From the UHGV virus genome UHGV-0069723: a DNA stretch of 41,341 nucleotides. One strand, 5' to 3'. Made by a program: the position numbers and the translations under genes. The stretch's first letter is position 1; each line of letters begins with the position of its first letter. This document shows, in pieces, positions 1 to 39,542 of this stretch. The stretch is from a virus. The notes under the pieces are model-generated. The model did no database searches and was not told the origin of the DNA. It saw nothing but the letters and a program-made list of their open reading frames with translations.

Positions 1-24
1 TCATTCCTATTCAGATACTAATTT

Positions 25-51
25 AACCCTCTGTTTTTACAGAGGGTTTTT
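25..51. repeat. Left terminal hairpin repeat, candidate attL core (AACCCTCTG-N6-CAGAGGGTTTTT)
   Basis: Stem CCCTCTG/CAGAGGG plus T-run; same stem and flanks recur at 39515-39542 with a different loop (TTTTTA vs TTACTA). Integrase gene lies immediately inside. Confidence 0.55.
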
Positions 52-103
52 GTTTTTATGTATTCATTTCTATTCACTCTACACCATATTTTTCGTCGGT
101 ACA

Positions 104-114
104 GGTGACGGTAT
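104..114. promoter_or_regulatory. Candidate integrase arm-type site GGTGACGGTAT (left arm)
   Basis: Same 11-mer in same orientation at 39391-39401 near the right end; the 10-mer GTGACGGTAT also occurs at 340-349 and 430-439 inside int. Confidence 0.3.
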
Positions 115-129
115 TACCTTAAAGGTATA
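115..129. promoter_or_regulatory. Degenerate operator-like site TTACC-TTAAA-GGTAT upstream of int
   Basis: One mismatch from the TTACC-N5-GGTAA palindrome found repeatedly in this prophage; 42 bp upstream of the int start. Confidence 0.3.
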
Positions 130-170
130 CTCTCATGCCGTCATGAAAATGGTTTCTATACGGGTGAATT

Positions 171-1421
171 GTGCTTACCGATACAAAATTAAAAAACCTC
201 AAGCCGCAGGACAAACTGTACAAGGTTTCCGATCGTGACGGGCTGTATGTAGCTGTGCTTACGTCAGGCACGGTCTCGTTTCGCTATGACTACCGTATCA
301 ACGGTCGCCGCGAAACACTGGTAATCGGGCAGTATGGGCGTGACGGTATCAGCCTGGCAGAAGCGCGAGAAGAACTGATTGCTGCAAAGAAGCTGCTTAA
401 AGCAGGCCAGTCACCGGCTGCGGCTAAACGTGACGGTATCAAAAAGATTCGTGGTGCCGAGACGTTTGCGGTACATACCGACAGTTATATGAAACACGTC
501 ATCCTGGCTGACAGTACCCGCGCAATGAAACAGGCGGTGATCGACCGTGACATACTTCCGGTTCTTGGCAATAAAATGATGGCTGAAATTACCACATCGA
601 TGGTTCGTGATTTGTGTGACCGGATTGTCGAACGCGGTGGCCGGGCAACAGCAGTGCAGGCCAGGGAGATCATCAGTAGCGTATACCGTCACGCCAATGA
701 CCGTGGTCATGGTTTGTTTAATCCTGCGGCTGACATTAAACCTTCGTCTATCGCCATATTTAAACCACGAGAGCGAACACTGACACCAGAAGAAATTGGC
801 CTGTTCTTCCGCACGCTGGATGCCATTGGTGCTATGGGCACTATGAAAATGGCTTTAAAACTGGTGCTTATCACTATGGTTCGTAAGGGCGAATTCACCA
901 ATGCAACGTGGGATGAAATAGATTTTAAAAAATGGACATGGACAATTCCTCCAGACCGCATGAAGGGAAGCCGGGCGCACGTTATTTACCTGCCTAAACA
1001 GGCACAGGATATATTGGTCGGGTTGCAGATGTGCGCTGGTGGAAGTGAATATCTGGTTCCTGGTCGTTACAATATCCGGAAGCCATTATCTAATGCCGCG
1101 CTGAACTCTCTGATCGACAGAACGGTGAAAATAATAAATGAAGATGGTGAGCATATTCAGGACTTCACTGTACATGATATGCGCCGTACAGCCAGTACGT
1201 TGTTGCATGAGGCTGGTTATCCTTCAGACTGGATTGAAAAGGCTCTGGCACATGAGCAGAAAGGTGTGCGCGCCGTATATAACAAAGCGGAATACGCCAG
1301 ACAGCGCGCCTACATGTTGCAGCAGTGGGCCGATATGATTGATTCATGGATTGACGGGGAGCATACGGATCTGATTCCGTTCTCCCCGTCGAAGTTTGAG
1401 AAGTGGATGGCGGGGGAATAA
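171..1421 (+). CDS. int: Tyrosine-type site-specific integrase (P4-like, arm-binding N-terminal domain)
   Basis: 416 aa ORF with GTG start; N-terminus MLTDTKLKNLKPQDKLYKVSDRDGLYVAV...FRYDYRINGRRETLVIGQYG typical of P4-family integrases; C-terminal HDMRRT box and conserved Tyr region; sits next to the attL-type repeat. Confidence 0.9.
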   Translation: MLTDTKLKNLKPQDKLYKVSDRDGLYVAVLTSGTVSFRYDYRINGRRETLVIGQYGRDGISLAEAREELIAAKKLLKAGQSPAAAKRDGIKKIRGAETFAVHTDSYMKHVILADSTRAMKQAVIDRDILPVLGNKMMAEITTSMVRDLCDRIVERGGRATAVQAREIISSVYRHANDRGHGLFNPAADIKPSSIAIFKPRERTLTPEEIGLFFRTLDAIGAMGTMKMALKLVLITMVRKGEFTNATWDEIDFKKWTWTIPPDRMKGSRAHVIYLPKQAQDILVGLQMCAGGSEYLVPGRYNIRKPLSNAALNSLIDRTVKIINEDGEHIQDFTVHDMRRTASTLLHEAGYPSDWIEKALAHEQKGVRAVYNKAEYARQRAYMLQQWADMIDSWIDGEHTDLIPFSPSKFEKWMAGE

Positions 1422-1615
1422 CGTTTAATAGTTCTGCTGATTTTCTTCCATCTCTGCTTCTGCTGCCAGTGATTCAATTTTGTTTTCGAATATTGCTGAC
1501 AGTGTTGCAAATTCAGCATCAGTGACAGCGGGAATTGGAACAAACCTGATCCCGCTGTGTGCAAGCATGTTTGCAGTTTCAAGGCATTTTCTTAAATCTG
1601 CTGGTGATGCCCTGT

Positions 1616-2266
1616 TCATGCAGCACGCTCCCGCCCCTGGATGTCTGTTGGTGACAGCGGAGCATTGCTGAATGCATTTGTTAATCCGCCAATATCCAAC
1701 GCGTATCCAGGGTGTAGTTGCACTGCCGGGTCTTCGCACTGATTACCCCAAACATCGAAGCCATGAGACGTCTGGCGGGCGAACAGTTCAATGCGAGAAA
1801 CATCGCCTAATAATTGCACAAGTTTTTCACGAACGATATCTGGCTTTCTTGAATGCTCAAGCCGCGGTGCGGTAAATGACTGAACGATCCCTGCATTAAT
1901 GCGCGTAGGTAGTTTTCCCTTTACCGCAAACAGGCAATCTTCACTATTGGCGCGAGTCATGTGTCCCATACCCATAACCAGTTTATCTGGTTGTCGACTA
2001 CCACATTTTATCCACGTGAAGCCCTTCATCGTCATCAGACGGAATCCCCAGGCTTCAACAACTTTTAGTGCTTCGAGTGGTTGTGTTGGCACCCACCACA
2101 TGGCCAACAGACAGTTTTCATCGGCCAAATCCCACACAGGAAGGCGGCAGATATCCAGCACACTCATAACCGGATATTTAAAACCGGCACCGCGATTACC
2201 ATCTGCGGCTTTGTCCCGGTATACCCAGGGTGGATCTGCATAGATTAGTGTGTATTTCTTAGTCAT
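1616..2266 (-). CDS. MT-A70 family N6-adenine DNA methyltransferase
   Basis: Motif YADPPW near the N-terminus (MTKKYTLIYADPPWVY); ATG at 2266 preceded by GGGGTGG RBS; the track ORF extends to a GTG at 2278. C-terminal 30 aa look low-complexity. Confidence 0.8.
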   Translation of the reverse strand: MTKKYTLIYADPPWVYRDKAADGNRGAGFKYPVMSVLDICRLPVWDLADENCLLAMWWVPTQPLEALKVVEAWGFRLMTMKGFTWIKCGSRQPDKLVMGMGHMTRANSEDCLFAVKGKLPTRINAGIVQSFTAPRLEHSRKPDIVREKLVQLLGDVSRIELFARQTSHGFDVWGNQCEDPAVQLHPGYALDIGGLTNAFSNAPLSPTDIQGRERAA

Positions 2267-2558
2267 AAACCACCCCACAACATCCTATGCCGCTATAGTC
2301 GCCACGGCGAAGGCCGTTACCTTTTGTGATACATTGGTCCCTGCGAACCGCGATCCTTGCACGTTCAACATCACCAGAAGCAACATCCATACACTGAAGC
2401 CAAAGGTGAGCGGCAATGCGGAATTGCCCTTTTTTCTCTCTTTCAATCGCGCGTTTTTCGATCTCTATCGCCGCAGGAGTAACGGCGACAATCTTTGACG
2501 GACTGCGCATTGAAACCTTATTCATGTGATATTTTTCAAGTCGGCTTAACTTTCTCAC
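2259..2558 (-). CDS. Hypothetical protein (early-left operon)
   Basis: 99 aa ORF same strand as flanking genes; stop overlaps the methyltransferase start by 8 nt; start codon uncertain (Met at 2558, 2525 or 2510). Confidence 0.5.
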   Translation of the reverse strand: MRKLSRLEKYHMNKVSMRSPSKIVAVTPAAIEIEKRAIEREKKGQFRIAAHLWLQCMDVASGDVERARIAVRRDQCITKGNGLRRGDYSGIGCCGVVYD

Positions 2559-2667
2559 TTAATCCAACCCTCTCTGAAAATTAATGCCAGCAGATAAAGC
2601 CATGCTGAAACAGAGGCCAGGAATAAGTACCATCCTGACCATTTGCTCCAGTGCCTTAGCAGCGCAC

Positions 2668-2916
2668 TCATGCAGCGTTGCTCACGGGACGATATACACG
2701 TTGCTGAACAGGAGGCTTTTTACCCTGGAACTCTGCCGGGCTTGCTGCCTGACGTTCATCAAGCCAACGCTCAACTTCATCACGGTTCCATGCGCAGCGT
2801 TTATCGGTGATATACCAGCGTTTAGGAAATTCCCCTGCGCGCTCCATACGGTCGATAGTGCTCCATGACAGTGGCACCACCGCCAGGAGTTCTTTCTTAC
2901 CTAATGCACCTTTCAT
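2668..2916 (-). CDS. AlpA-family HTH regulator / excisionase-like protein
   Basis: 82 aa; LSWSTIDRMERAGEFPKRWYITDKRCAWNRDEVERWL matches the AlpA/Xis-type HTH pattern; located between int and the recombination genes. Confidence 0.8.
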   Translation of the reverse strand: MKGALGKKELLAVVPLSWSTIDRMERAGEFPKRWYITDKRCAWNRDEVERWLDERQAASPAEFQGKKPPVQQRVYRPVSNAA

Positions 2917-14201: not shown

Positions 14202-14278
14202 TGGTGTGGCATGCAGGATTCGAACCTGCGACCAACCGCTTAGAAGGCGGTTGCTCTGTCCAACTGAGCTAATGCCAC
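14202..14278 (-). tRNA. tRNA-Arg (anticodon UCU, reads AGA), phage-encoded, CCA encoded
   Basis: Hand-folded cloverleaf: acceptor GTGGCAT/ATGCCAC, D-arm GCTC-AGTTGGACA-GAGC, anticodon stem ACCGC/GCGGT with loop CTTCTAA, T-arm GCAGG-TTCGAAT-CCTGC, discriminator A plus CCA; 77 nt. Confidence 0.9.
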
Positions 14279-28216: not shown

Positions 28217-30691
28217 ATGAGACAGGAATGTATACAAGCGGTTCAGCAGGCGGCGCAGCGCATGTTAACGGCGCGAGAAATACAGAACATTGAAGACCGC
28301 ATTTATCGAAATATGCGCTCCATTGCTCGTGATGACCCTATATCGTGGCGACAACTTTCCGAATCAGAGCGGCTATATCGAGCAGCACAATTGGCATCTG
28401 AAGAATTACAGCGAGAAGCGGCATTAAAGAAACGTCGTGTGGCTCTCACTATAGCCGCGCGTCAGAGATTGGATAAATTTATCAATAGCTATCAAGGGGC
28501 TGATGGGAAACTTGGCGCTCTTAACCGTACTATAGCTTTTAATGCAGACGGTAAATCTAATTTCCTCTCTGTTGAATCCAGAACAAAAGCCACCCGTGAT
28601 TATGCATTGAGTCAATTGCAGGAGGCATTCGAAGCAGTTGATCCTCGCTTTTTTGGTCTGTTTGAAGATGAAGCGGGCGTACGTGACCTGGTATATGAAA
28701 TGCGGGGGCAAAATACTGGCAATGCTAAAGCAAGAAACGGTGCTAAGGCGTGGAGAGAAGTTACAGAGCTGCTGCGCCGCCGGTTTAATGATGCTGGTGG
28801 GGACATTGGCTATCTCGAAAACTGGGGGATCCCTCAACATCATTCTATGGAAAAGGTTGGGGCAGTATCAAAGGATAAGTGGGTTAGCGATGTTATAGGT
28901 AAGCTGGATCGCAAATATTATATCCGAGCCGATGGACAACTGATGAACGATGCCGAGTTGTCTTCATTTCTTGGAGAGGCTTATAACACGATCGCTACTG
29001 GTGGGCTGAATAAGCTTACTGATACCGGAATGCGAATTTCCGGCGCACGTGCTAACCGTGGTAATGCATCACGACAGATACATTTCAAAGATGCAGATTC
29101 CTATCTGCAATATCAGCAACTTTATGGCGATCGCTCTCTATGGGAAATCATGGTCGGTCACCTGGAAGGTATCAGTAAAGATATTGCACTGGTGGAAACA
29201 TATGGCCCAAACCCCGATCATGTTTTCCGCTCTCTTCTTGATCAGGTGAAGGCAGAAACGGCAACAGCTAACCCGAGTAAAACCGGTAAAGTCGAGCGGC
29301 TGGCGAACAACACAGAGAATCTGTACAACTTTATTTCCGGAAAGACACAGCCTGTAGCGAATCCGCACATCGCGCGATGGTCTGACAATATCCGCAACTG
29401 GCTGGTTGCCAGCAGACTCGGATCCGCGTTGCTGTCATCGTTCTCTGATCTTGGAACCATGTATCTGTCTGCGAAGGTTACCAACCTTCCAATGAACCAG
29501 TTATTCCGCAACCAGCTTGAAGCTATGGACCCAACGAACCGTACAGAACTTGCGCGGGCGCGCCGCGCTGGTCTGGCGATGGAATCTCTACTTGGCAGCG
29601 TTAACCGCTGGGCGATGGATAATATGGGGCCGTCAGTGTCTCGTTGGGCGGCAACGGCGGTAATGCGTGCCAGTGGGCTTACAGCATGGTCAGATGCGCA
29701 CAAGCGCGCCTATGGCGTAACCATGATGGGAAGCCTGGGAGAAGTAGTGTCACGGACACCAGACCTTCGTAGCCTCGATGACTCTGATTTTCGTATCCTG
29801 AAAAGCAAAGGGATTACTGACACAGACTGGAGCGTATGGAAGCTGGCGAAACAGGAGGACTGGGGGAACGGTAATAATATGATGCTGACACCGGAAAGCA
29901 TTATGCGTATCCCTGATTCAGCAGTTAAACATCTTGGTGAGCCTGAACGCGTGAAATTTGAGGCAATGCGTAAACTGCTCGGTGCCGTAACTGAAGAAGT
30001 TGATATGGCTGTTATTACACCGGGAGCACGTGAGCAACTGATAACCGGTTCTGGTATTCAGCGTGGAACATGGAAAGGTGAATTAACGAGAAGTGTTTTC
30101 CTGTTTAAATCGTTCCCTATCTCGGTTGTTATGCGTCACTGGTCACGCGCTATGGGTATGCCGTCTGCTGGTGGGCGTGCGGCATATATTGCGACGTTTA
30201 TTGCCAGTACGACCATTCTTGGCGCTTTGTCGCAGCAACTTAACGACCTTGCGTCTGGTCGTAATCCTCGAGAGATGACAGGAGAAGATGCCGCAAAATT
30301 CTGGCTTGGTGCTCTACTGAAAGGTGGTGGTCTTGGCCTTTACGGTGACTTTTTATTGTCAGATCACACTAGGTACGGAAGCGGCGCGCTGGCGTCGATG
30401 CTTGGCCCGGTAGCTGGTCTGGTTGATGACGTAGTGAAGATTGCTCAGGGCATACCGTTAAATGCTGTGGAAGGGAAGAGTGAGCAGACTGGTGGTGATC
30501 TGGTGAAGCTGGGGAAAGGTTTGATGCCTGGTGCGAATCTCTGGTACTTGAAGGCGGCTCTCGATCACATGATCTTTAACCAGATGCAGGAGTATTTTTC
30601 ACCAGGCTATTTGCGTAAAATGGAGCAACGTTCGAAGAAAGAGTTTAACCAGACATACTGGTGGCGACCACAGGATGTCACTCCGCAATAA
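28217..30691 (+). CDS. Large internal virion / ejection protein
   Basis: 824 aa; last gene of the long late operon before the accessory region. Confidence 0.6.
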   Translation: MRQECIQAVQQAAQRMLTAREIQNIEDRIYRNMRSIARDDPISWRQLSESERLYRAAQLASEELQREAALKKRRVALTIAARQRLDKFINSYQGADGKLGALNRTIAFNADGKSNFLSVESRTKATRDYALSQLQEAFEAVDPRFFGLFEDEAGVRDLVYEMRGQNTGNAKARNGAKAWREVTELLRRRFNDAGGDIGYLENWGIPQHHSMEKVGAVSKDKWVSDVIGKLDRKYYIRADGQLMNDAELSSFLGEAYNTIATGGLNKLTDTGMRISGARANRGNASRQIHFKDADSYLQYQQLYGDRSLWEIMVGHLEGISKDIALVETYGPNPDHVFRSLLDQVKAETATANPSKTGKVERLANNTENLYNFISGKTQPVANPHIARWSDNIRNWLVASRLGSALLSSFSDLGTMYLSAKVTNLPMNQLFRNQLEAMDPTNRTELARARRAGLAMESLLGSVNRWAMDNMGPSVSRWAATAVMRASGLTAWSDAHKRAYGVTMMGSLGEVVSRTPDLRSLDDSDFRILKSKGITDTDWSVWKLAKQEDWGNGNNMMLTPESIMRIPDSAVKHLGEPERVKFEAMRKLLGAVTEEVDMAVITPGAREQLITGSGIQRGTWKGELTRSVFLFKSFPISVVMRHWSRAMGMPSAGGRAAYIATFIASTTILGALSQQLNDLASGRNPREMTGEDAAKFWLGALLKGGGLGLYGDFLLSDHTRYGSGALASMLGPVAGLVDDVVKIAQGIPLNAVEGKSEQTGGDLVKLGKGLMPGANLWYLKAALDHMIFNQMQEYFSPGYLRKMEQRSKKEFNQTYWWRPQDVTPQ

Positions 30692-30699
30692 AAGGAGAT

Positions 30700-30825
30700 A
30701 TGATGGTTCAAATAACTTTTATTGTACTAATATGTGCAGCGTTTTTATGCTATTCATACATTTTGATAAAAATGGGTTTCAATTGGAATCTCTGTTGCGT
30801 GCAGCGGCATGGTTCGGCTTTGTAG
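30700..30825 (+). CDS. Small hydrophobic peptide (moron candidate)
   Basis: Hand-called 41 aa ORF (MMVQITFIVLICAAFLCYSYILIKMGFNWNLCC...) with AAAGGAG RBS; the alternative track frame 30675-30863 is also hydrophobic, so the frame is uncertain. Confidence 0.3.
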   Translation: MMVQITFIVLICAAFLCYSYILIKMGFNWNLCCVQRHGSAL

Positions 30826-30910
30826 TATTCGGAATTGTATTGTTCGGAAGAATAATAAAATAACTAGTTAATTTGTGGATTGGTGCTGTTTTTCCATGAT
30901 AGGGGTAATT

Positions 30911-31291
30911 ATGAGAAAAGTATTTTTGATTTTTGGATTTATGCTTCTCGTTGGATGCCAGTCAGCTGCACAGTTTGAAAGAAATATGCTTACGTGGCGC
31001 GGGCAGAGTATAGACGCAATGGTTCAGCAGTGGGGGTATCCTCAGGGAGAGCTTACATCTCCAGATGGAAACAGAGTGTATGTTTACTCAAGCTCTGGTA
31101 GTTATAACGTACCACAAACCACAACGTATAATACTACGTCTAATCTAATTGGTAATACTATATATTCAAACACATACGCAACAACTGATGGCGGTTATAC
31201 ACTCCATTTCAGTTGCTCTGTTTACGTTGAGTTTGGTGCTGATAAGATTATTAAAAATGTTACATGGCGCGGTAATAATTGCGTTGCGTGA
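30911..31291 (+). CDS. Lipoprotein (moron), possible BamE/SmpA-OmlA-like N-terminal region
   Basis: 126 aa from ATG 30911; signal peptide with lipobox LLVGC; Thr/Asn/Tyr-rich C-terminal half; visibly AT-rich gene; stop overlaps the GTGACATGTCAC palindrome. Confidence 0.6.
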   Translation: MRKVFLIFGFMLLVGCQSAAQFERNMLTWRGQSIDAMVQQWGYPQGELTSPDGNRVYVYSSSGSYNVPQTTTYNTTSNLIGNTIYSNTYATTDGGYTLHFSCSVYVEFGADKIIKNVTWRGNNCVA

Positions 31292-31299
31292 CATGTCAC
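31288..31299. repeat. 12-bp perfect palindrome GTGACATGTCAC (copy 3 of 3)
   Basis: Identical to copies at 11366 and 13631; overlaps the lipoprotein stop codon and abuts a terminator hairpin. Confidence 0.6.
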
Positions 31300-31325
31300 A
31301 GGCCGCTTTCGCGGCCTTGTTTTTA
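31300..31325 (+). terminator. Rho-independent terminator after the lipoprotein gene
   Basis: Hairpin AGGCCGC-TTTC-GCGGCCT followed by TGTTTTT. Confidence 0.6.
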
Positions 31326-31401
31326 ACGAATGCCACCGCCGCCCGGGCGGGAATCCGCAGAACGCCCACCGCAGCGGGAGCCGTCAGCAGCAGTATCGCT
31401 G

Positions 31402-31905
31402 TTATACTATTGAGTTTAATGATATCTTGTCCTTAATATCATTAAGTTTGCCATATATCTTTTTTGCATAAAAATCAGCCTCCTCAATAAACCTCGACTT
31501 CTCATTATCAGGCATATTTTTGAAGGTATGTGCACATGTATATTGAGAGTAGTATTTGTGAAATTCTTGATACGCATTATTGAGTTCTTGTAAGTCTTTT
31601 TTATACTCAGGAAGGTATATGTTTATTAGCATTTCCATCGTTTGCAACGGATTCGCTCTTGATACGTCAAATTTACTATCAGAGTGGTATCTGGCATTTT
31701 TTACGAAATTGAGAATGGTAATTGTGCTTGAATCTATGACTTTTTTAGTAAGTATACAATTTATAAATAATTGCTCGCGTTTATCCCTTAATATTTTTTG
31801 TCGCTCTAATCTTATGCTGTTTTTGTATCCTTGTCCTGCATTTATATAAGTGGAAACTATAGCAATAACTGCACCTATCAATGCGCCTAAGATAGTATTA
31901 TCCAT
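31402..31905 (-). CDS. Membrane-anchored hypothetical protein (cassette gene C)
   Basis: 167 aa from ATG 31905 with AGGTGG RBS; one N-terminal hydrophobic helix (NTILGALIGAVIAIVSTYI) then a Lys/Tyr-rich soluble domain; visibly AT-rich; no motif I recognise. Confidence 0.6.
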   Translation of the reverse strand: MDNTILGALIGAVIAIVSTYINAGQGYKNSIRLERQKILRDKREQLFINCILTKKVIDSSTITILNFVKNARYHSDSKFDVSRANPLQTMEMLINIYLPEYKKDLQELNNAYQEFHKYYSQYTCAHTFKNMPDNEKSRFIEEADFYAKKIYGKLNDIKDKISLNSIV

Positions 31906-31930
31906 ATAAGCCACCTAAACTGCGTAAAAT

Positions 31931-32794
31931 TTATTTTCTGCCACTTCTGTAGTATATGTTGCGACCATTTTTGGTCACATTAACAACATGACCCTTTGTT
32001 TCTACTTTGTTATTTGTTGCCTTATATACTTCAAAGTCAAACCATGATATATGACTTATTTCGTCTATAGATACCATAATTTCTAGACCTTGAACTTTCT
32101 TTTTGCTTATCCCTTTTATCGCAGCACTGCGCTTAATTTGGATTTCACCTGGGTAAGCGTTTGTAAATGTAACAGATAAATTTTCTTTGTTTCTGTACCC
32201 TGACATTAAAGGAACAAAAGATATGTGTTGGTGTGGCCCTTGATTTTCCGTTGGCTCACCAGAACCATTTATTATTCCAACGTATACTTTATTTGATGAT
32301 AAAGTAATTAACATTGGTTTCTTAGGATCTGATTCGATTGCATCAAGCAATAGCAAATCTAAAGAACCCTGGGAGTACGTTTTTCGCAATACCCTAGCTT
32401 TCATTGCCTCTGATATTTTGTCATAAATATCACGTTTATAAAAACAACCTAAAAGAAGATCTTTTAGCCAAACAAAAGATACATAACACAAAGAGAAGCA
32501 AATTGATGTGACTGACAGAAGAAGTAGCCACATGTAAATTCTATCTGTTTCTGGTTTTGACGTTACATTAAAAGTTTCCACCATATCGTGAACTAGGTGA
32601 AAATCAGGATATTTATATTTTATAAATGCGGCAATTATTACCGAAGCAACAAGGCAATATGTACCTAATGCAGCTACTTTCATATAAAGAAGCTGGCCTT
32701 CATGTCGGTATAAACGGAAATAATGATACTGGTTAGCGGTTATCATAATATAACCACTAACCAGAATGGGGATAATTAGAAGAGCTAACAACAC
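31931..32794 (-). CDS. Polytopic membrane protein with C-terminal soluble domain (cassette gene B)
   Basis: 287 aa; three to four hydrophobic segments in the first ~125 aa; probable GTG start overlapping gene A's stop by 1 nt; visibly AT-rich; no motif I recognise. Confidence 0.65.
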   Translation of the reverse strand: MLLALLIIPILVSGYIMITANQYHYFRLYRHEGQLLYMKVAALGTYCLVASVIIAAFIKYKYPDFHLVHDMVETFNVTSKPETDRIYMWLLLLSVTSICFSLCYVSFVWLKDLLLGCFYKRDIYDKISEAMKARVLRKTYSQGSLDLLLLDAIESDPKKPMLITLSSNKVYVGIINGSGEPTENQGPHQHISFVPLMSGYRNKENLSVTFTNAYPGEIQIKRSAAIKGISKKKVQGLEIMVSIDEISHISWFDFEVYKATNNKVETKGHVVNVTKNGRNIYYRSGRK

Positions 32795-33003
32795 TATTTC
32801 CTTACAGTGGCAAGATCCTGTTTAACGATTGCAGCAGCGAGACGACGCATCTCCTTAACCTCAGGAAGCTCAGAAATTTGCTGTGATGAGATATACACAC
32901 CACCACGCTTGTTAACCTGCGCTGACGCCGGAACTTCTGCATTTTTTGCCTGAGGGCTGGGTGCATTATCCCTCGTTTTTGTACGAGCGAACCAAAATCC
33001 CAT
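32794..33003 (-). CDS. Small hypothetical protein (cassette gene A)
   Basis: 69 aa; strong GGAGGAGA RBS; ordinary GC unlike B and C; promoter-like TTGCAG-17-TACTAT and an operator site directly upstream. Confidence 0.5.
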   Translation of the reverse strand: MGFWFARTKTRDNAPSPQAKNAEVPASAQVNKRGGVYISSQQISELPEVKEMRRLAAAIVKQDLATVRK

Positions 33004-33029
33004 ATCTCCTCCTCATGTAAACACATGGT

Positions 33030-33044
33030 TTACCTTTAAGGTAA
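33030..33044. promoter_or_regulatory. Perfect TTACC-N5-GGTAA site overlapping the cassette promoter -10/+1
   Basis: TTACCTTTAAGGTAA on the plus strand; on the minus strand it abuts the TACTAT -10 candidate (33044-33049). Confidence 0.5.
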
Positions 33045-33114
33045 TAGTACGCTATTCACCCCCAGTCTGCAATCGTACAGAATTATTTAAAGGCACATCC
33101 CTGTGCCGCCGCTG

Positions 33115-34474: not shown

Positions 34475-34578
34475 TATCTATTCGTATTTACAGTCTTTCT
34501 ATCCATATGTGGTTTTTCAGGTAATAGAATAACCAGATATGCGGCGCAACGGGTGCTGCGACTATCTGGAGATTTAAC

Positions 34579-37335
34579 ATGACGGTCTCAACCGAAGTTG
34601 ACCACAACGAATACACAGGTAACGGAGCTACGACATCATTTCCGTATACCTTCCGTATTTTCAAAAAATCCGACCTGGTTGTTCAGGTGTCTGACCTGAA
34701 CGGGAACGTAACAGAATTGGTTCTGGATACCGGTTATACGGTAACAGGGGCGGGCACTTATAGTGGCGGTTCTGTTGTTCTTCCGTCGCCGCTTGCTGCT
34801 GGATGGCGAATTACGATAGATCGTGTGCTTGATGTGGTGCAGGAGACTGATCTTCGTAATCAGGGAAAATTTTTCCCCGAGGTGCATGAAGATGCCTTTG
34901 ACTATCTGACGATGCTGATCCAGCAATGTTTTGGATGGTTCAGACGTGCATTGATGAAACCATCTTTGCTTGCAAAATATTACGATGCAAAGCAAAACAA
35001 AATTTCTAACCTTGCAGATCCATCACTTGAGCAGGATGCTGTAAATAATCGATCAATGCGCAATTATGTTGATGCTGCAATCGCCGGAGTTGTTGGTGGT
35101 TTTGGTTGGTTTATTCAGTATGGTTCTGGAGCAGTATACCGAACGTTCCAGGATAAGATGCGGGATAACGTTAACGCTCTTGATTTTGTTCCGTTTGAGC
35201 AAAGATATGCTGCATTAAATTTTGAAGTTGATGCGTCTGAATGGTTAATTAATGCGATAAATTCTGGTGCAAGTGTCGTTAGAATACCTGCAGGTAAATG
35301 GATGATTTCTAAGAACATAGATGTGCCTCCTGGAGTGTCTTTAATTGGTGATGGCATTGATTATTGGGATACATATAGACCAGCGCCTGAAAGATTATTA
35401 AAAAGTTGGAGTAAAGGAACCCATCTTGTATTTACTGGTGATGGAGAAAAAAACAAATATTTTTTTAACATCTCTAATGAAAGACCAGTTAAAATTGTTG
35501 AAGGGATATCTTGTAAGTTCACTGAGTTTACAAATGAAGATTCTGTAGGTGTTACTCCTGCTACACCAAAAGCCATGAGCGTAGCTGTTAGTATCAACAG
35601 GGCATCACAGTTACGCAACCTGAGAATAATGGTAAGTAAAAATGGTATTGAAGGATACAATAACCCTGATTCTTATTCATTGGGTGATGACTGGGATATA
35701 GGGTTGCATGTATACGATAGCTGTGATTCAGTTATTGATAACGTACAGATTGTCGGCTATTGGAGGGTAAAAGGACTACTACTGACAGAAAATGACGGGA
35801 GCCTTTCAATGAAGGGAAATCCTGAAAAAACGCACTTTAATAACGTTTATGTCCAGTCAGGGATCGCGATAAGGAATAGCCCTCAGATTGATCTTGTAAG
35901 TAATACTGAAAGCTCAGTGACATTTAAACATAAAAAGTCGATGAGAATAACTTCAGTTAAACAGTTTAAAATTGCTGGCAGTGAATCAGTATATACGTAT
36001 TCAGATGCATCATTTGATGGAGCTAACATCACACTATCTGGTATTTCTCCTGAAATACAAGGTACAATAAGTGTAATCAGGTTTCCGTCAATTGGTAATA
36101 ATTTTAGCGGGACTGTTTTTGAGAATACAGTAGCCACTACTCTTGATCATACATCAGGTAAGCCATCAGAATACTTTGGCCTTCCTGCATCCTTTGCATT
36201 AGAGGTTGATGGTTTCCCTGTTCGTAATTTAAGGTTTGATAAATTCAAAGCTCAAACAACATTTGATAAAGGAAATTGCATTTTTGGTGATTGCCGTGAT
36301 GTTAAAATAACATCATCTGAGTTTGAAAATGGAATTATGATTGCGTATAACCAGACCGAGACTCAGGGTTATACAGGAAATCTTAGATTTTTTGCTTCTG
36401 ATCTTCAGAGCAGCGTTAACACAAGTGAGTTTAAACCAAGAGACGCATTTGTAGACAATAGACAAATAAAAACGGAGTTTACTGATGGTTCGTTCATTAT
36501 AAAGAACTGGAGGCCTACAGATACAAAAATACAATGGTCGTCTGGAGCAGATGCTATTGTTCTTAGAGAGTCACCTGACGAACAATCAGACGGAAATATT
36601 TACGGGTATCACATTGATGGTAAAAGATGGATTAATGTTAGTGGATATAACAAAGATATAAATATTTCATCAAGAAACTTAAGCGTAAAAAACCATGGTG
36701 ATGACTCTGCAGTTATTAATATATTCGGCGACTCTGGAAATATTGCCATTAAAGGTAATTTTTCACCAATTATTGATAACAGCAAATCTCTTGGTGCACC
36801 ATCATTTAGATGGGCACAGGTTTATTCTGCGAACGGTTCGATAAACACATCAGATGGTAGAGAAAAAAGTGAACCGATTAGTACAAGTGAGCTCAGCTTG
36901 TATATGTCTCGTGGTTATGAAGGTGATGCAATTCTGGATGCATGGGGAGATATCAGGATTGTAGCTTTTCGCTGGCTTGATGCCGTCAGGGAAAAGGGAG
37001 ATGGTGCCCGCTGGCATTTTGGTGTTATAGCACAACAAGTGAGAGACACTTTCCTCGCGCATGGGATTGATGGAACCAGATTTGGCCTTCTCTGTTACGA
37101 TGAATGGGATGATAAATACGCGCCAGTGATGGCGGTAAGGATGATCACTAAAGTTGTGGATGGCGTCGAAATTGAGATGGAAGAAGAATACGAAACAGAA
37201 GAGCGAACTCTGGTTTGCAAGGCTGGAAATAGGTGGGGTATCCGTACTGACCAGTGTTTATGGCTTGAGTCAGCTTATTTGCGTAGAAGAATCGAAAAAA
37301 TAGAATCACGTCTTGCAATGCTTGAAAGTAGCTAA
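34579..37335 (+). CDS. Tailspike / tail fibre with C-terminal intramolecular chaperone (peptidase S74-type) domain
   Basis: 918 aa; conserved-looking N-terminal head-binding region; visibly AT-rich central region (~35200-36850); C-terminal ...SDGREKSEPISTSELSLYMSRGYEGDAILDAWGDIRIVAFRW... resembles the self-cleaving chaperone-of-endosialidase domain. Confidence 0.85.
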   Translation: MTVSTEVDHNEYTGNGATTSFPYTFRIFKKSDLVVQVSDLNGNVTELVLDTGYTVTGAGTYSGGSVVLPSPLAAGWRITIDRVLDVVQETDLRNQGKFFPEVHEDAFDYLTMLIQQCFGWFRRALMKPSLLAKYYDAKQNKISNLADPSLEQDAVNNRSMRNYVDAAIAGVVGGFGWFIQYGSGAVYRTFQDKMRDNVNALDFVPFEQRYAALNFEVDASEWLINAINSGASVVRIPAGKWMISKNIDVPPGVSLIGDGIDYWDTYRPAPERLLKSWSKGTHLVFTGDGEKNKYFFNISNERPVKIVEGISCKFTEFTNEDSVGVTPATPKAMSVAVSINRASQLRNLRIMVSKNGIEGYNNPDSYSLGDDWDIGLHVYDSCDSVIDNVQIVGYWRVKGLLLTENDGSLSMKGNPEKTHFNNVYVQSGIAIRNSPQIDLVSNTESSVTFKHKKSMRITSVKQFKIAGSESVYTYSDASFDGANITLSGISPEIQGTISVIRFPSIGNNFSGTVFENTVATTLDHTSGKPSEYFGLPASFALEVDGFPVRNLRFDKFKAQTTFDKGNCIFGDCRDVKITSSEFENGIMIAYNQTETQGYTGNLRFFASDLQSSVNTSEFKPRDAFVDNRQIKTEFTDGSFIIKNWRPTDTKIQWSSGADAIVLRESPDEQSDGNIYGYHIDGKRWINVSGYNKDINISSRNLSVKNHGDDSAVINIFGDSGNIAIKGNFSPIIDNSKSLGAPSFRWAQVYSANGSINTSDGREKSEPISTSELSLYMSRGYEGDAILDAWGDIRIVAFRWLDAVREKGDGARWHFGVIAQQVRDTFLAHGIDGTRFGLLCYDEWDDKYAPVMAVRMITKVVDGVEIEMEEEYETEERTLVCKAGNRWGIRTDQCLWLESAYLRRRIEKIESRLAMLESS

Positions 37336-37564
37336 ATATTGAGGATTAATCTTAGTAGCCGGCTTGCTTATTACGAAGTAAGTTCGGCTTCTTTCTTCTT
37401 TAATTGTGACTGAGAGGTACACTAGACCATTTTCTGAACGAAATTTTCATTGCCGTAGAAGGTAGAAATACAGCGTTTTGAGGTAACTATTATCCTTAAA
37501 TGGTTTATTATGTGTGAATCTTCAATAGTAAGGAGATTGTTATGCGTAATAAACGGTGTTCATT

Positions 37565-39514: not shown

Positions 39515-39542
39515 AACCCTCTGTTACTACAGAGGGTTTTTT
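39515..39542. repeat. Right terminal hairpin repeat, candidate attR core; also the terminator of the lysis operon
   Basis: AACCCTCTGTT-ACTA-CAGAGGGTTTTTT; same stem and flanks as 25-51. Confidence 0.55.

Follow-up and report, generated by a model that had tools for sequence, protein, structure and literature searches.

Gene and prophage context

The window analyzed here is the whole stretch of 41,341 nt of UHGV virus genome UHGV-0069723. It holds a phiV10-like (Uetakevirus) prophage of about 39 kb, integrated beside yfgI in Escherichia coli, with genes for an integrase, terminase, portal, capsid and tail proteins, holins, GH19 and DUF2514, followed by yfgI/yfgH. Of the window sequence between 12 and 31 kb, 94% aligns with phiV10, with 97.2% identity. 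The sole tailspike gene of the prophage (Table 1) lies after the virion genes and before the holin/GH19 lysis cassette, with an SD-like GGAG (34568-34571) located 8 nt 5' of its ATG. It encodes a precursor of 918 aa (102.4 kDa), and PHROG 1171 'tail spike protein' covers aa 1-917 (E=2.5e-300). A scan for terminators 3' of the gene gave nothing convincing. In the phiV10-like phages phiV10, phiv142-3, vB_EcoP_ZX5 and HEMP4 the tailspike gene likewise sits upstream of the lysis genes and the virion module is 97% identical; past about aa 200, however, the nucleotide sequence of the present gene is unrelated to theirs.

Table 1. Position and basis of assignment of the tailspike gene and its parts (window coordinates)
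Feature	Position	Strand	Basis or remark
Tailspike (receptor-binding protein) gene	34579..37335	+	Intact ATG-to-TAA ORF, PHROG match, prophage context
N-terminal tail-anchor domain, Uetakevirus type, aa 1-203	34579..35187	+	Nucleotide identity, PDB sequence match, Foldseek
Start of receptor-binding domain, aa 204-257, AT-rich, resident Uetakevirus allele	35188..35349	+	Identity to O15_8X
Left crossover patch, encoding GIDYWDTYRP	35344..35376	+	All three sequences nearly identical
Exchanged central module, aa 258-749 (parallel beta-helix body and distal beta-rich subdomain)	35350..36825	+	
Predicted autoproteolytic centre	36808..36867	+	Arg744 36808-36810; Thr757-Ser758 scissile bond, Ser codon 36850-36852; Lys763 36865-36867
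Right junction, encoding ...QVYSANGS, recurrent S74-module boundary	36815..36840	+	Informative sites
Peptidase S74 / intramolecular chaperone domain, aa 758-918	36850..37335	+	PF13884, 3GW6, Foldseek
AT-rich 3' flank of 145 nt travelling with the S74 module	37336..37480	+	Only in the 13 full-length carriers

Domain organization

The conserved N-terminus described in the earlier note is the genus-typical anchor, which in Uetakevirus comprises about the first 205 aa (PMC10408124). The Uetakevirus phages phiv142-3, ZX5, EC.W1-9 and HEMP4 have the first 590-610 nt of the gene at 93-96% identity, attached to other receptor domains, and in more than 10 PHROG families the similarity to the protein is confined to aa 1-166 or 1-203. 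Residues 1-180 resemble the N-terminal part of Dpo31/Dpo36, tailspikes of Klebsiella phages (E=5.5e-32), and Foldseek matched the anchor to 8ck1_B and to the T7 gp17 N-terminus (7boz). Of 5426 complete E. coli genomes, 509 match some part of the gene but only 13 its full length.

The body of the protein (aa 258-749) is a right-handed parallel beta-helix in the predicted structure, as in a phage tailspike. A Pfam search of aa 185-757 yielded no catalytic-domain family and only a sub-threshold match to the stalk, and a PDB sequence search gave no match to aa 205-710; the centre may therefore be a hydrolase, a lyase or a pure binding domain. Identity to the beta-helix depolymerases CBA120 TSP1/TSP2, phi29 gp12, Dettilon gp208 and Klebsiella Depo32 is 10-13%, and no catalytic motif can be assigned as shared with them. 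Seven carboxylates of the central domain (D373, D406, E416, E542, D563, D574 and E583) are invariant among 42 homologues. An endosialidase (PF12219/PF12217 beta-propeller) was considered and rejected: PF12219 scored 18.3 bits against a cut-off of 25, the match covers profile positions 118-160 (the last 43), which represent the stalk, and the central fold is a beta-helix. The beta-helix probably binds, and may well cleave, a surface polysaccharide, both activity and substrate being putative.

The C-terminus carries a Peptidase S74 domain, as the earlier note had read from an SDGREK-type motif. The motif is literally present at aa 758-763 (nt 36850-36867), and the profile search placed PF13884 on aa 758-829 (E=3.1e-10) with 40.6 bits against a cut-off of 22. 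The chaperone structure 3GW6 matches aa 709-917 in sequence (E=4.7e-34) and is also found by Foldseek (E=6e-13), together with 4uw8 and 3gud. The monomer AF2 model shows the S74 fold, in which residues 846-880 form long strands and residues 890-917 a C-terminal helix (pLDDT 75-87); pLDDT is below 50 over aa 731-757, the stalk and cleavage site. Alignment to 3GW6 maps R744, S758 and K763 on endoNF R897, S911(A) and K916, whose roles in the active site have been described (PMC8326128). A Ser-Lys dyad (S-x4-K with Thr before Ser) is thus found at T757-S758...K763 and the stalk arginine, R744, 14 residues before the serine. Compared with the C-terminal chaperone of the coliphage K1F endosialidase endoNF (PDB 3GW6; MEROPS/Pfam Peptidase S74), the same catalytic trio occupies the same place after the stalk motif and the terminal helix is suited to a coiled coil, but the passenger is a beta-helix instead of a sialidase beta-propeller, and 12 residues are inserted after SDGREK. 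The C-terminus of the T5 L-shaped tail fibre pb1 (PDB 4UW8; sequence match E=2e-8), with catalytic residues Arg1250/Thr1263-Ser1264/Lys1269 (PMC4690869), has a spacing identical to R744/T757-S758/K763; T5 is a siphovirus, and its passenger is a fibre tip binding oligomannose, where a beta-helix is found here.

By homology, the S74 domain is predicted to cleave itself off after trimerisation; the released domain would have a mass of 18.6 kDa and leave a spike of 83.8 kDa. It is improbable that the domain remains uncut, with a trimerisation or capping role at the C-terminus of the mature spike. The 12-residue insertion relative to endoNF would fit retention, as would the S74 domain of the P22-like tailspike discussed below, which at 21.4 bits against the Pfam cut-off of 22 indicates that the family tolerates divergence. 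The exact endoNF and T5 pb1 spacing of Arg744, Ser758 and Lys763 argues for cleavage, as does the conservation of T757, S758, D759 and K763 (at least 90% among the 42 homologues); in studied homologues, only mutation of the serine blocks cleavage (PMC4690869).

Base composition

In 300-nt windows the GC content is 0.47-0.48 at 34.5-34.9 kb, 0.34-0.40 at 35.2-36.8 kb and 0.46 at 36.8-37.3 kb; the average of the whole window is 0.481. GC and GC3 are, respectively, 0.450 and 0.399 for aa 1-203, 0.377 and 0.222 for aa 204-257, 0.362 and 0.258 for aa 258-749, and 0.449 and 0.371 for aa 750-918, while the backbone virion genes have 0.49-0.54 and 0.41-0.59. Both the anchor (chi-square p=3e-4) and the S74 module (p=0.007) have a GC3 different from that of the centre, from which aa 204-257 cannot be distinguished (p=0.68). 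A sharp change at about 35.2 kb and a return near 36.85 kb had been claimed for the gene. The composition is indeed not uniform, by windows and by segment GC3 alike, and the right boundary falls at 36780-36850, in agreement with the claimed 36.85 kb, but on the left GC falls gradually over about 34.9-35.2 kb. A change-point fit to raw GC placed the left boundary loosely at 34925; this position fits neither the anchor boundary nor the recombination junction and was set aside, segment GC3 being more informative. The compositional boundary at 35.19 kb is that between anchor and receptor domain, and the junction of the recent recombination, at 35.35 kb, is 160 nt downstream of it.

Coding or functional constraint on a beta-helix protein (amino-acid bias or expression tuning), with no horizontal exchange, might also make a centre AT-rich. 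GC2 is nearly flat along the gene (0.39, 0.40 and 0.45 over three fitted segments), and the two-change-point likelihood fit gave an LLR of 12.0, just above the maximum of 11.1 (mean 4.8) in 100 codon shuffles; both observations suit such constraint. The shift lies mostly at third codon positions, however, with GC3 going from 0.40 to 0.26, and since the GC drop is greatest at synonymous sites it is not an amino-acid effect. The parental sequences described next leave this explanation with hardly any probability.

Exchanged modules and their junctions

The earlier note had also suggested that the central receptor-binding domain was exchanged horizontally, and comparison with tailspikes of related prophages supported this. 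Nucleotides 1-770 of the gene are 97.5% identical to the tailspike of a Uetakevirus prophage in strain O15_8X. Nucleotides 771-2241 show 99.0% identity to a P22-like prophage tailspike gene whose flanks are only 32-41% identical. Over the three segments the identities are 97.5%, 67.4% and 56.8% to the Uetakevirus gene and 31.9%, 99.0% and 40.7% to the P22-like gene; the start of the receptor domain (aa 204-257) is 100% identical to the former and 33-63% to the latter. The 960 informative sites show a clean change of parent at gene nt 792/799 and a second change at about nt 2236-2254. The last Uetakevirus-supporting site on the left is nt 792 and the first P22-like-supporting site nt 799. On the right, the last site of the run supporting the P22-like parent is nt 2236, and from nt 2242 onwards the sites are divided in their support; this junction lies some 10-35 nt 5' of the Ser758 codon. 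Sharp breakpoints and near-perfect identity to a gene of a prophage with an unrelated backbone effectively refute constraint as the source of the AT-rich centre; the phiV10-like backbone around the gene is 97% conserved, and the P22-like match occurs in 16 independent genomes, which argues against an assembly artefact in a single record.

The P22-like (Lederbergvirus-type) partner, WP_213666884.1, is encoded by E. coli NCCP12480, O15_8X and 14 other complete genomes, and aa 258-749 are about 98-99% identical between the two proteins. It also ends in an S74-type domain, though one only about 35% identical to that found here, and its anchor is PF09008 Head_binding, unlike the Uetakevirus anchor of the present protein. 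Its gene belongs to another prophage, at the intS/tRNA-Arg site, where the prophage studied here lies beside yfgI. Strain O15_8X carries the P22-like gene together with a related allele in a Uetakevirus gene, so that the 5' part and the centre, two of the three modules, both have their partner sequences in one strain. Exchange of receptor domains among Uetake-, Lederberg- and other phage genera has been documented, and no conserved recombination motifs were found to flank the receptor domain in Uetakevirus prophages (PMC10408124); compared with those prophages, the crossovers here fall inside the receptor domain.

The S74 module itself appears, from its distribution and junctions, to be a separately exchanged unit. 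Its closest relative (90.4% nt, 80% aa) is in a third tailspike, a different P22-like one (AST215), where nucleotide similarity starts at about 36837 and ends at the stop codon; the module is otherwise present only in the 13 full-length carrier genomes. The AST215 tailspike was considered as a CUS-3-like endosialidase and rejected, as its centre has no PDB endosialidase match. Beyond the 3' flank, homology to the O15_8X prophage backbone resumes at position 37481. In a database of 5.8 billion proteins, centres at least 97% identical to this one are paired either with the S74 domain found here or with one 35% identical to it; one beta-helix, at 99% identity, is thus found joined to two deeply different S74 chaperones.

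A single event is a possible, though rather unlikely, route to the same arrangement: a donor with both centre and S74 domain would have replaced 35.35-37.48 kb, and the P22-like gene would be a later recombinant at 36.83 kb. One long patch would fit the 145-nt flank past the stop codon that moves with the S74 module, and a junction at about 36.83 kb was obtained in independent comparisons, so that the other lineage may have used it. No such donor was found in the 5426 complete genomes or the 5.8-billion-protein database, however, where this gene alone has both parts, and the two parts have different GC3 values (0.26 and 0.37, p=0.007).

We therefore favor, with a probability of roughly 0.85, a chimera of at least three parts: a Uetakevirus anchor with the start of the receptor domain, a beta-helix body of the P22-like type, and an S74 domain of third origin, for which trimerisation, self-cleavage, enzymatic activity and substrate are predicted. 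The gene is a clear but ordinary case of the well-known pattern of modular recombination, and it leaves the current understanding of tailspikes unchanged. It is a well-resolved natural example of temperate coliphages rebuilding a host-recognition protein, with breakpoints mapped to about 10-30 nt. For the engineering of tailspikes and tailocins, it presents anchor, receptor domain and chaperone as parts that can be used separately, with naturally used joints known.

Proposed assembly of the spike

In the chimera of three parts, the first (aa 1-257) probably derives from the resident Uetakevirus lineage, with aa 1-203 docking the trimer on the tail and aa 204-257 forming the first turns of the receptor domain. 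The second (aa 258-749) was probably exchanged by homologous recombination at two short patches conserved within the receptor-domain family; the term exchange implies no direction. The third (aa 750-918 with the 145-nt 3' flank) is probably of another origin. During assembly, the C-terminal S74 domains may bring three 102-kDa precursor chains together and act as a template on which the stalk and beta-helix before them fold. With the stalk in its folded state, Arg744 of a neighbouring chain would help to form the active site, in which Lys763 would activate Ser758. Cutting of the Thr757-Ser758 bond would then release the 18.6-kDa fragment and leave the 83.8-kDa mature spike. The beta-helix of the mature spike would bind, and probably cleave, surface polysaccharide, by which the short-tailed phage would reach the outer membrane.

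More speculatively, the short conserved stretch just 5' of the S74 cleavage site (...FRWAQVYSxxGSINT/SD) might be a general recombination joint. Through it and the GIDYWDTYRP patch, receptor domains and folding chaperones could be reassorted independently of each other in temperate phages of the Uetake and Lederberg types. The module might also target a surface glycan other than the O-antigen. We consider this proposal as a whole doubtful. If it is true, one beta-helix folds with chaperones that are only 35% identical to each other.

Carrier hosts and candidate receptor

The central module is present at ≥97.7% nucleotide identity in 29 carrier genomes. Genotypic typing of the carriers, which covered two serogroups (O6 and O15 wzy), found the O6 wzy in 6, the O15 wzy in 3 and neither in 20. 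Strain O15_8X suggested a link of the module to the single serogroup O15, which was rejected on these counts (3/29 O15, 6/29 O6); the module does not correspond to one O-serogroup, as a serogroup-specific subtype of receptor-binding protein in the sense of PMC10408124 would. Since carriers include O6, O15 and other hosts, the spike is a poor fit to a simple O-antigen-specific one.

Tentatively, the spike may instead recognise, and perhaps cleave, a surface glycan that several serogroups share (capsule, colanic acid, enterobacterial common antigen or LPS core). Apart from the spread over O6, O15 and other hosts, this is suggested by four genomes that contain two copies of the central module, in two prophages each, and by other Uetakevirus and Kayfunavirus receptor proteins that span several serogroups and for which a shared receptor has been suggested (PMC10408124). 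On the other hand, the Uetake- and Lederbergvirus spikes that have been studied are mostly O-antigen specific (PMC10408124), O-antigen loci are exchanged between strains and prophages can outlast a serogroup switch, and the typing used here is genotypic and comprises two serogroups only. The lack of a single host O-serogroup makes this receptor-domain subtype worth a biochemical test. A literature search for the serotypes of carrier strains found little; a paper on O2:H6 (PMC3958309) includes strain 04-00955.

Base composition of the tailspike gene

The tailspike ORF (34579-37335, +) is intact over 918 codons, with a GGAG 8 nt 5' of its ATG. In 300-nt windows the GC content starts at 0.47-0.48 at the 5' end of the gene, falls to 0.34-0.40 from about 35.2 to 36.8 kb and is back up to 0.46 at 36.8-37.3 kb, with a mean of 0.481 for the whole window; elsewhere in the window, GC below 0.40 occurs only at 30.4-33.3 kb. 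Together with GC3 by segment (see table), these values confirm the composition shift and recovery reported in the earlier note. The contrast with the centre is carried by synonymous positions for both the anchor (p=3e-4) and the C-terminal chaperone (S74) module (p=0.007), and GC2 is nearly flat along the gene. A two-change-point fit won narrowly over all of 100 codon shuffles (LLR 12.0 vs. a maximum of 11.1), with a loosely placed left boundary at 34925.

Features of the prophage, and composition and three-way nucleotide identity of tailspike gene segments
Feature	Position	Strand	GC	GC3	Identity to O15_8X Uetakevirus gene (%)	Identity to P22-like gene (%)
Integrase (prophage start)	171-1421					
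Low-GC island ORF	30875-31291	+				
Low-GC island ORF	31402-31914	-				
Low-GC island ORF	31931-32794	-				
Low-GC island ORF	32794-33003	-				
Backbone virion genes			0.49-0.54	0.41-0.59		
Tailspike	aa 1-203		0.450	0.399		
Tailspike	aa 204-257		0.377	0.222		
Tailspike	aa 258-749		0.362	0.258		
Tailspike	aa 750-918		0.449	0.371		
Tailspike gene	nt 1-770				97.5	31.9
Tailspike gene	nt 771-2241				67.4	99.0
Tailspike gene	nt 2242-2757				56.8	40.7

Partner genes and crossovers

The whole protein is covered by PHROG 1171 ('tail spike protein', E=2.5e-300). Many other PHROGs cover only its N-terminal (aa 1-166/203) or C-terminal part (aa 720-916), in itself a sign of modularity. Among 5426 complete E. 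coli genomes searched by megablast, the gene is present at full length in 13 and in some part in 509; its first ~600 nt occur in many more genomes than the 13, as expected of the conserved N-terminus claimed earlier. Gene nt 774-2278 recur at 98-99% identity in another 16 genomes, within genes named 'phage tailspike protein'. The P22-like partner gene (WP_213666884.1; loci L001 and L005) has a PF09008 Head_binding N-terminus and lies in a prophage with ejection protein, Arc and antirepressor genes that adjoins intS and tRNA-Arg. In a three-way alignment of the window gene, the P22-like gene and the tailspike of the Uetakevirus prophage of strain O15_8X (L003), close identity to the P22-like gene is confined to the centre (see table). 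Among the 960 informative sites, 206 consecutive ones up to nt 792 favour the Uetakevirus parent, and runs totalling several hundred sites at nt 799-2236 favour the P22-like parent; support is mixed beyond nt 2236. The left crossover falls within ~30 nt (35344-35376, coding for GIDYWDTYRP) that are near-identical in all three sequences, and the right crossover at 36815-36832 (coding for QVYSA). Horizontal exchange of the central domain, earlier suggested from composition, is supported by this comparison.

In strain O15_8X the Uetakevirus allele (L003, with a 67%-identical centre) occurs together with the P22-like gene (L005, with a 99%-identical centre); these are the two sequences needed for the left-hand crossover. 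The central module is found in two copies in four genomes, presumably one in a Uetakevirus and one in a P22-like prophage, so that exchange partners meet in one cell. At 34880-34965 (gene nt ~300-390) identity to the O15_8X allele falls to 73-85% within an otherwise near-identical anchor, a possible sign of another small recombination patch in the anchor's neck region.

The S74 module and its joint

The 3' module (36857-37480) comprises the S74 domain and 145 nt past the stop codon, and was found in no genomes other than the 13 full-length carriers; from 37481 on, the sequence is again homologous to the O15_8X backbone. Its closest relative is the tailspike C-terminus of the P22-like prophage of AST215 (L004, 3005-5494; 90.4% nt and 80% aa identity), with similarity from 36837 to the stop codon. 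The AST215 tailspike has a Head_binding anchor and a centre unrelated to that of the window, with only weak beta-propeller-type Pfam matches. Proteins in a large database whose centre is at least 97% identical to this one carry either this S74 domain or another that is only 35% identical. The AST215 relative with its unrelated centre, and the two S74 partners of one centre, argue that the S74 domain can be exchanged as a unit of its own. The comparisons repeatedly place its upstream boundary within the same ~25 nt, at 36815-36840, ~10-35 nt before the Ser758 codon. The 100%-identical gene of FDAARGOS_1257 (L002, NZ_CP069480.1, 8001-10475, corresponding to 34579-37053) is labelled a pseudogene ('missing C-terminus', ending at codon 825) by the NCBI pipeline; as the 918-codon ORF is intact, this is probably an annotation artefact of the chimeric C-terminus.

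There is ample documentation of modular tailspikes in which a conserved anchor is joined to a receptor domain acquired by horizontal exchange, also between Uetake- and Lederbergvirus (PMC10408124), and S74 chaperone domains have long been known from endosialidases, K5 lyases, T5 pb1 and GA-1 gp12. The protein itself is public under the name 'tail fiber domain-containing protein', belongs to a cluster of 654 sequences and is uncharacterised. The present case adds breakpoints resolved to tens of nucleotides, a recent crossover within the receptor domain rather than at its border with the anchor, an S74 joint that recurs in independent comparisons, and the pairing of the same helix with two very different chaperones.

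Domains and predicted processing

Residues 1-180 match the N-terminus of the Klebsiella phage tailspikes Dpo31/Dpo36 (E=5.5e-32), and the N-terminal domain matches T7-type fibre N-termini structurally. For the centre, sequence searches found no PDB relative and no Pfam family. Its homologues often carry PF12708, nearly always PF13884 and in one case PF12236, and are preceded by anchors of at least four kinds (PF09008, PF18668, PF03906 and the Uetakevirus type). An AlphaFold2 model built from 42 sequences has a mean pLDDT of 79.9, mostly at least 88 over aa 190-625. The S74 domain with its SDGREK motif, also noted earlier, is borne out by PF13884 (40.6 bits, cut-off 22), by a match of aa 709-917 to the endoNF chaperone (PDB 3GW6, E=4.7e-34; fold match, Foldseek E=6e-13) and by a literal SDGREK at aa 758-763. 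R744, S758 and K763 align to R897, S911 (Ala in the crystal) and K916 of endoNF, in which S911/K916 form the catalytic dyad and R897 is an essential stalk arginine (PMC8326128). The spacing is the same in T5 pb1 (Arg1250/Thr1263-Ser1264/Lys1269), which cuts the Thr-Ser bond (PMC4690869). Across the 42 aligned homologues, conservation is 90% or higher at T757, S758, D759 and K763. By analogy, cleavage at T757-S758 would yield a mature chain of 83.8 kDa and a fragment of 18.6 kDa.

Host serogroups

Carriers were typed genotypically from O-antigen gene names in the PGAP annotation. Strain O15_8X has wzx and wzy of the O15 family, and FDAARGOS_1257 has O6-family genes. Searches with the central module concatenated to wzy, covering O15 and O6, assigned O15 wzy to 3, O6 wzy to 6 and neither to 20 of the 29 E. 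coli genomes carrying 35352-36856; the module is thus not tied to a single O-serogroup. This spread may reflect a shared receptor, as suggested for some other Uetakevirus/Kayfunavirus receptor proteins that also span serogroups (PMC10408124), or it may reflect serogroup switching after lysogeny or a broad tailspike specificity.

Prophage context

A complete prophage lies within the window. The integrase is followed by terminase, portal/adaptor, major capsid, tail and internal virion proteins, then by a low-GC accessory island, a BRO-N gene, the tailspike, two holins, a GH19 endolysin and DUF2514, after which come the host genes yfgI and yfgH. The stretch at 12-31 kb is, over 94% of its length, 97.2% identical to phage phiV10, which is listed among Uetakevirus (PMC10408124). 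A tRNA-Arg (anticodon TCT; 14202-14278, -) stands between the genes for terminase and portal, and a tRNA-Arg is annotated in the matching region of related phiV10-like phages. The 14-nt direct repeat TACAGAGGGTTTTT occurs at 38-51, just outside the integrase gene, and at 39528-39541, just before yfgI; from its position, it is a candidate attachment-site core.

From the last virion gene to the BRO-N gene (30400-33100), GC is 0.32-0.40 and GC3 0.27-0.35. No Pfam or PADLOC family was assigned to the island ORFs, one of which (170 aa) has a weak, sub-threshold match to a nucleoside 2-deoxyribosyltransferase-like protein. The O15_8X prophage has a YafO toxin gene in the matching slot, so the island looks like a variable accessory slot.
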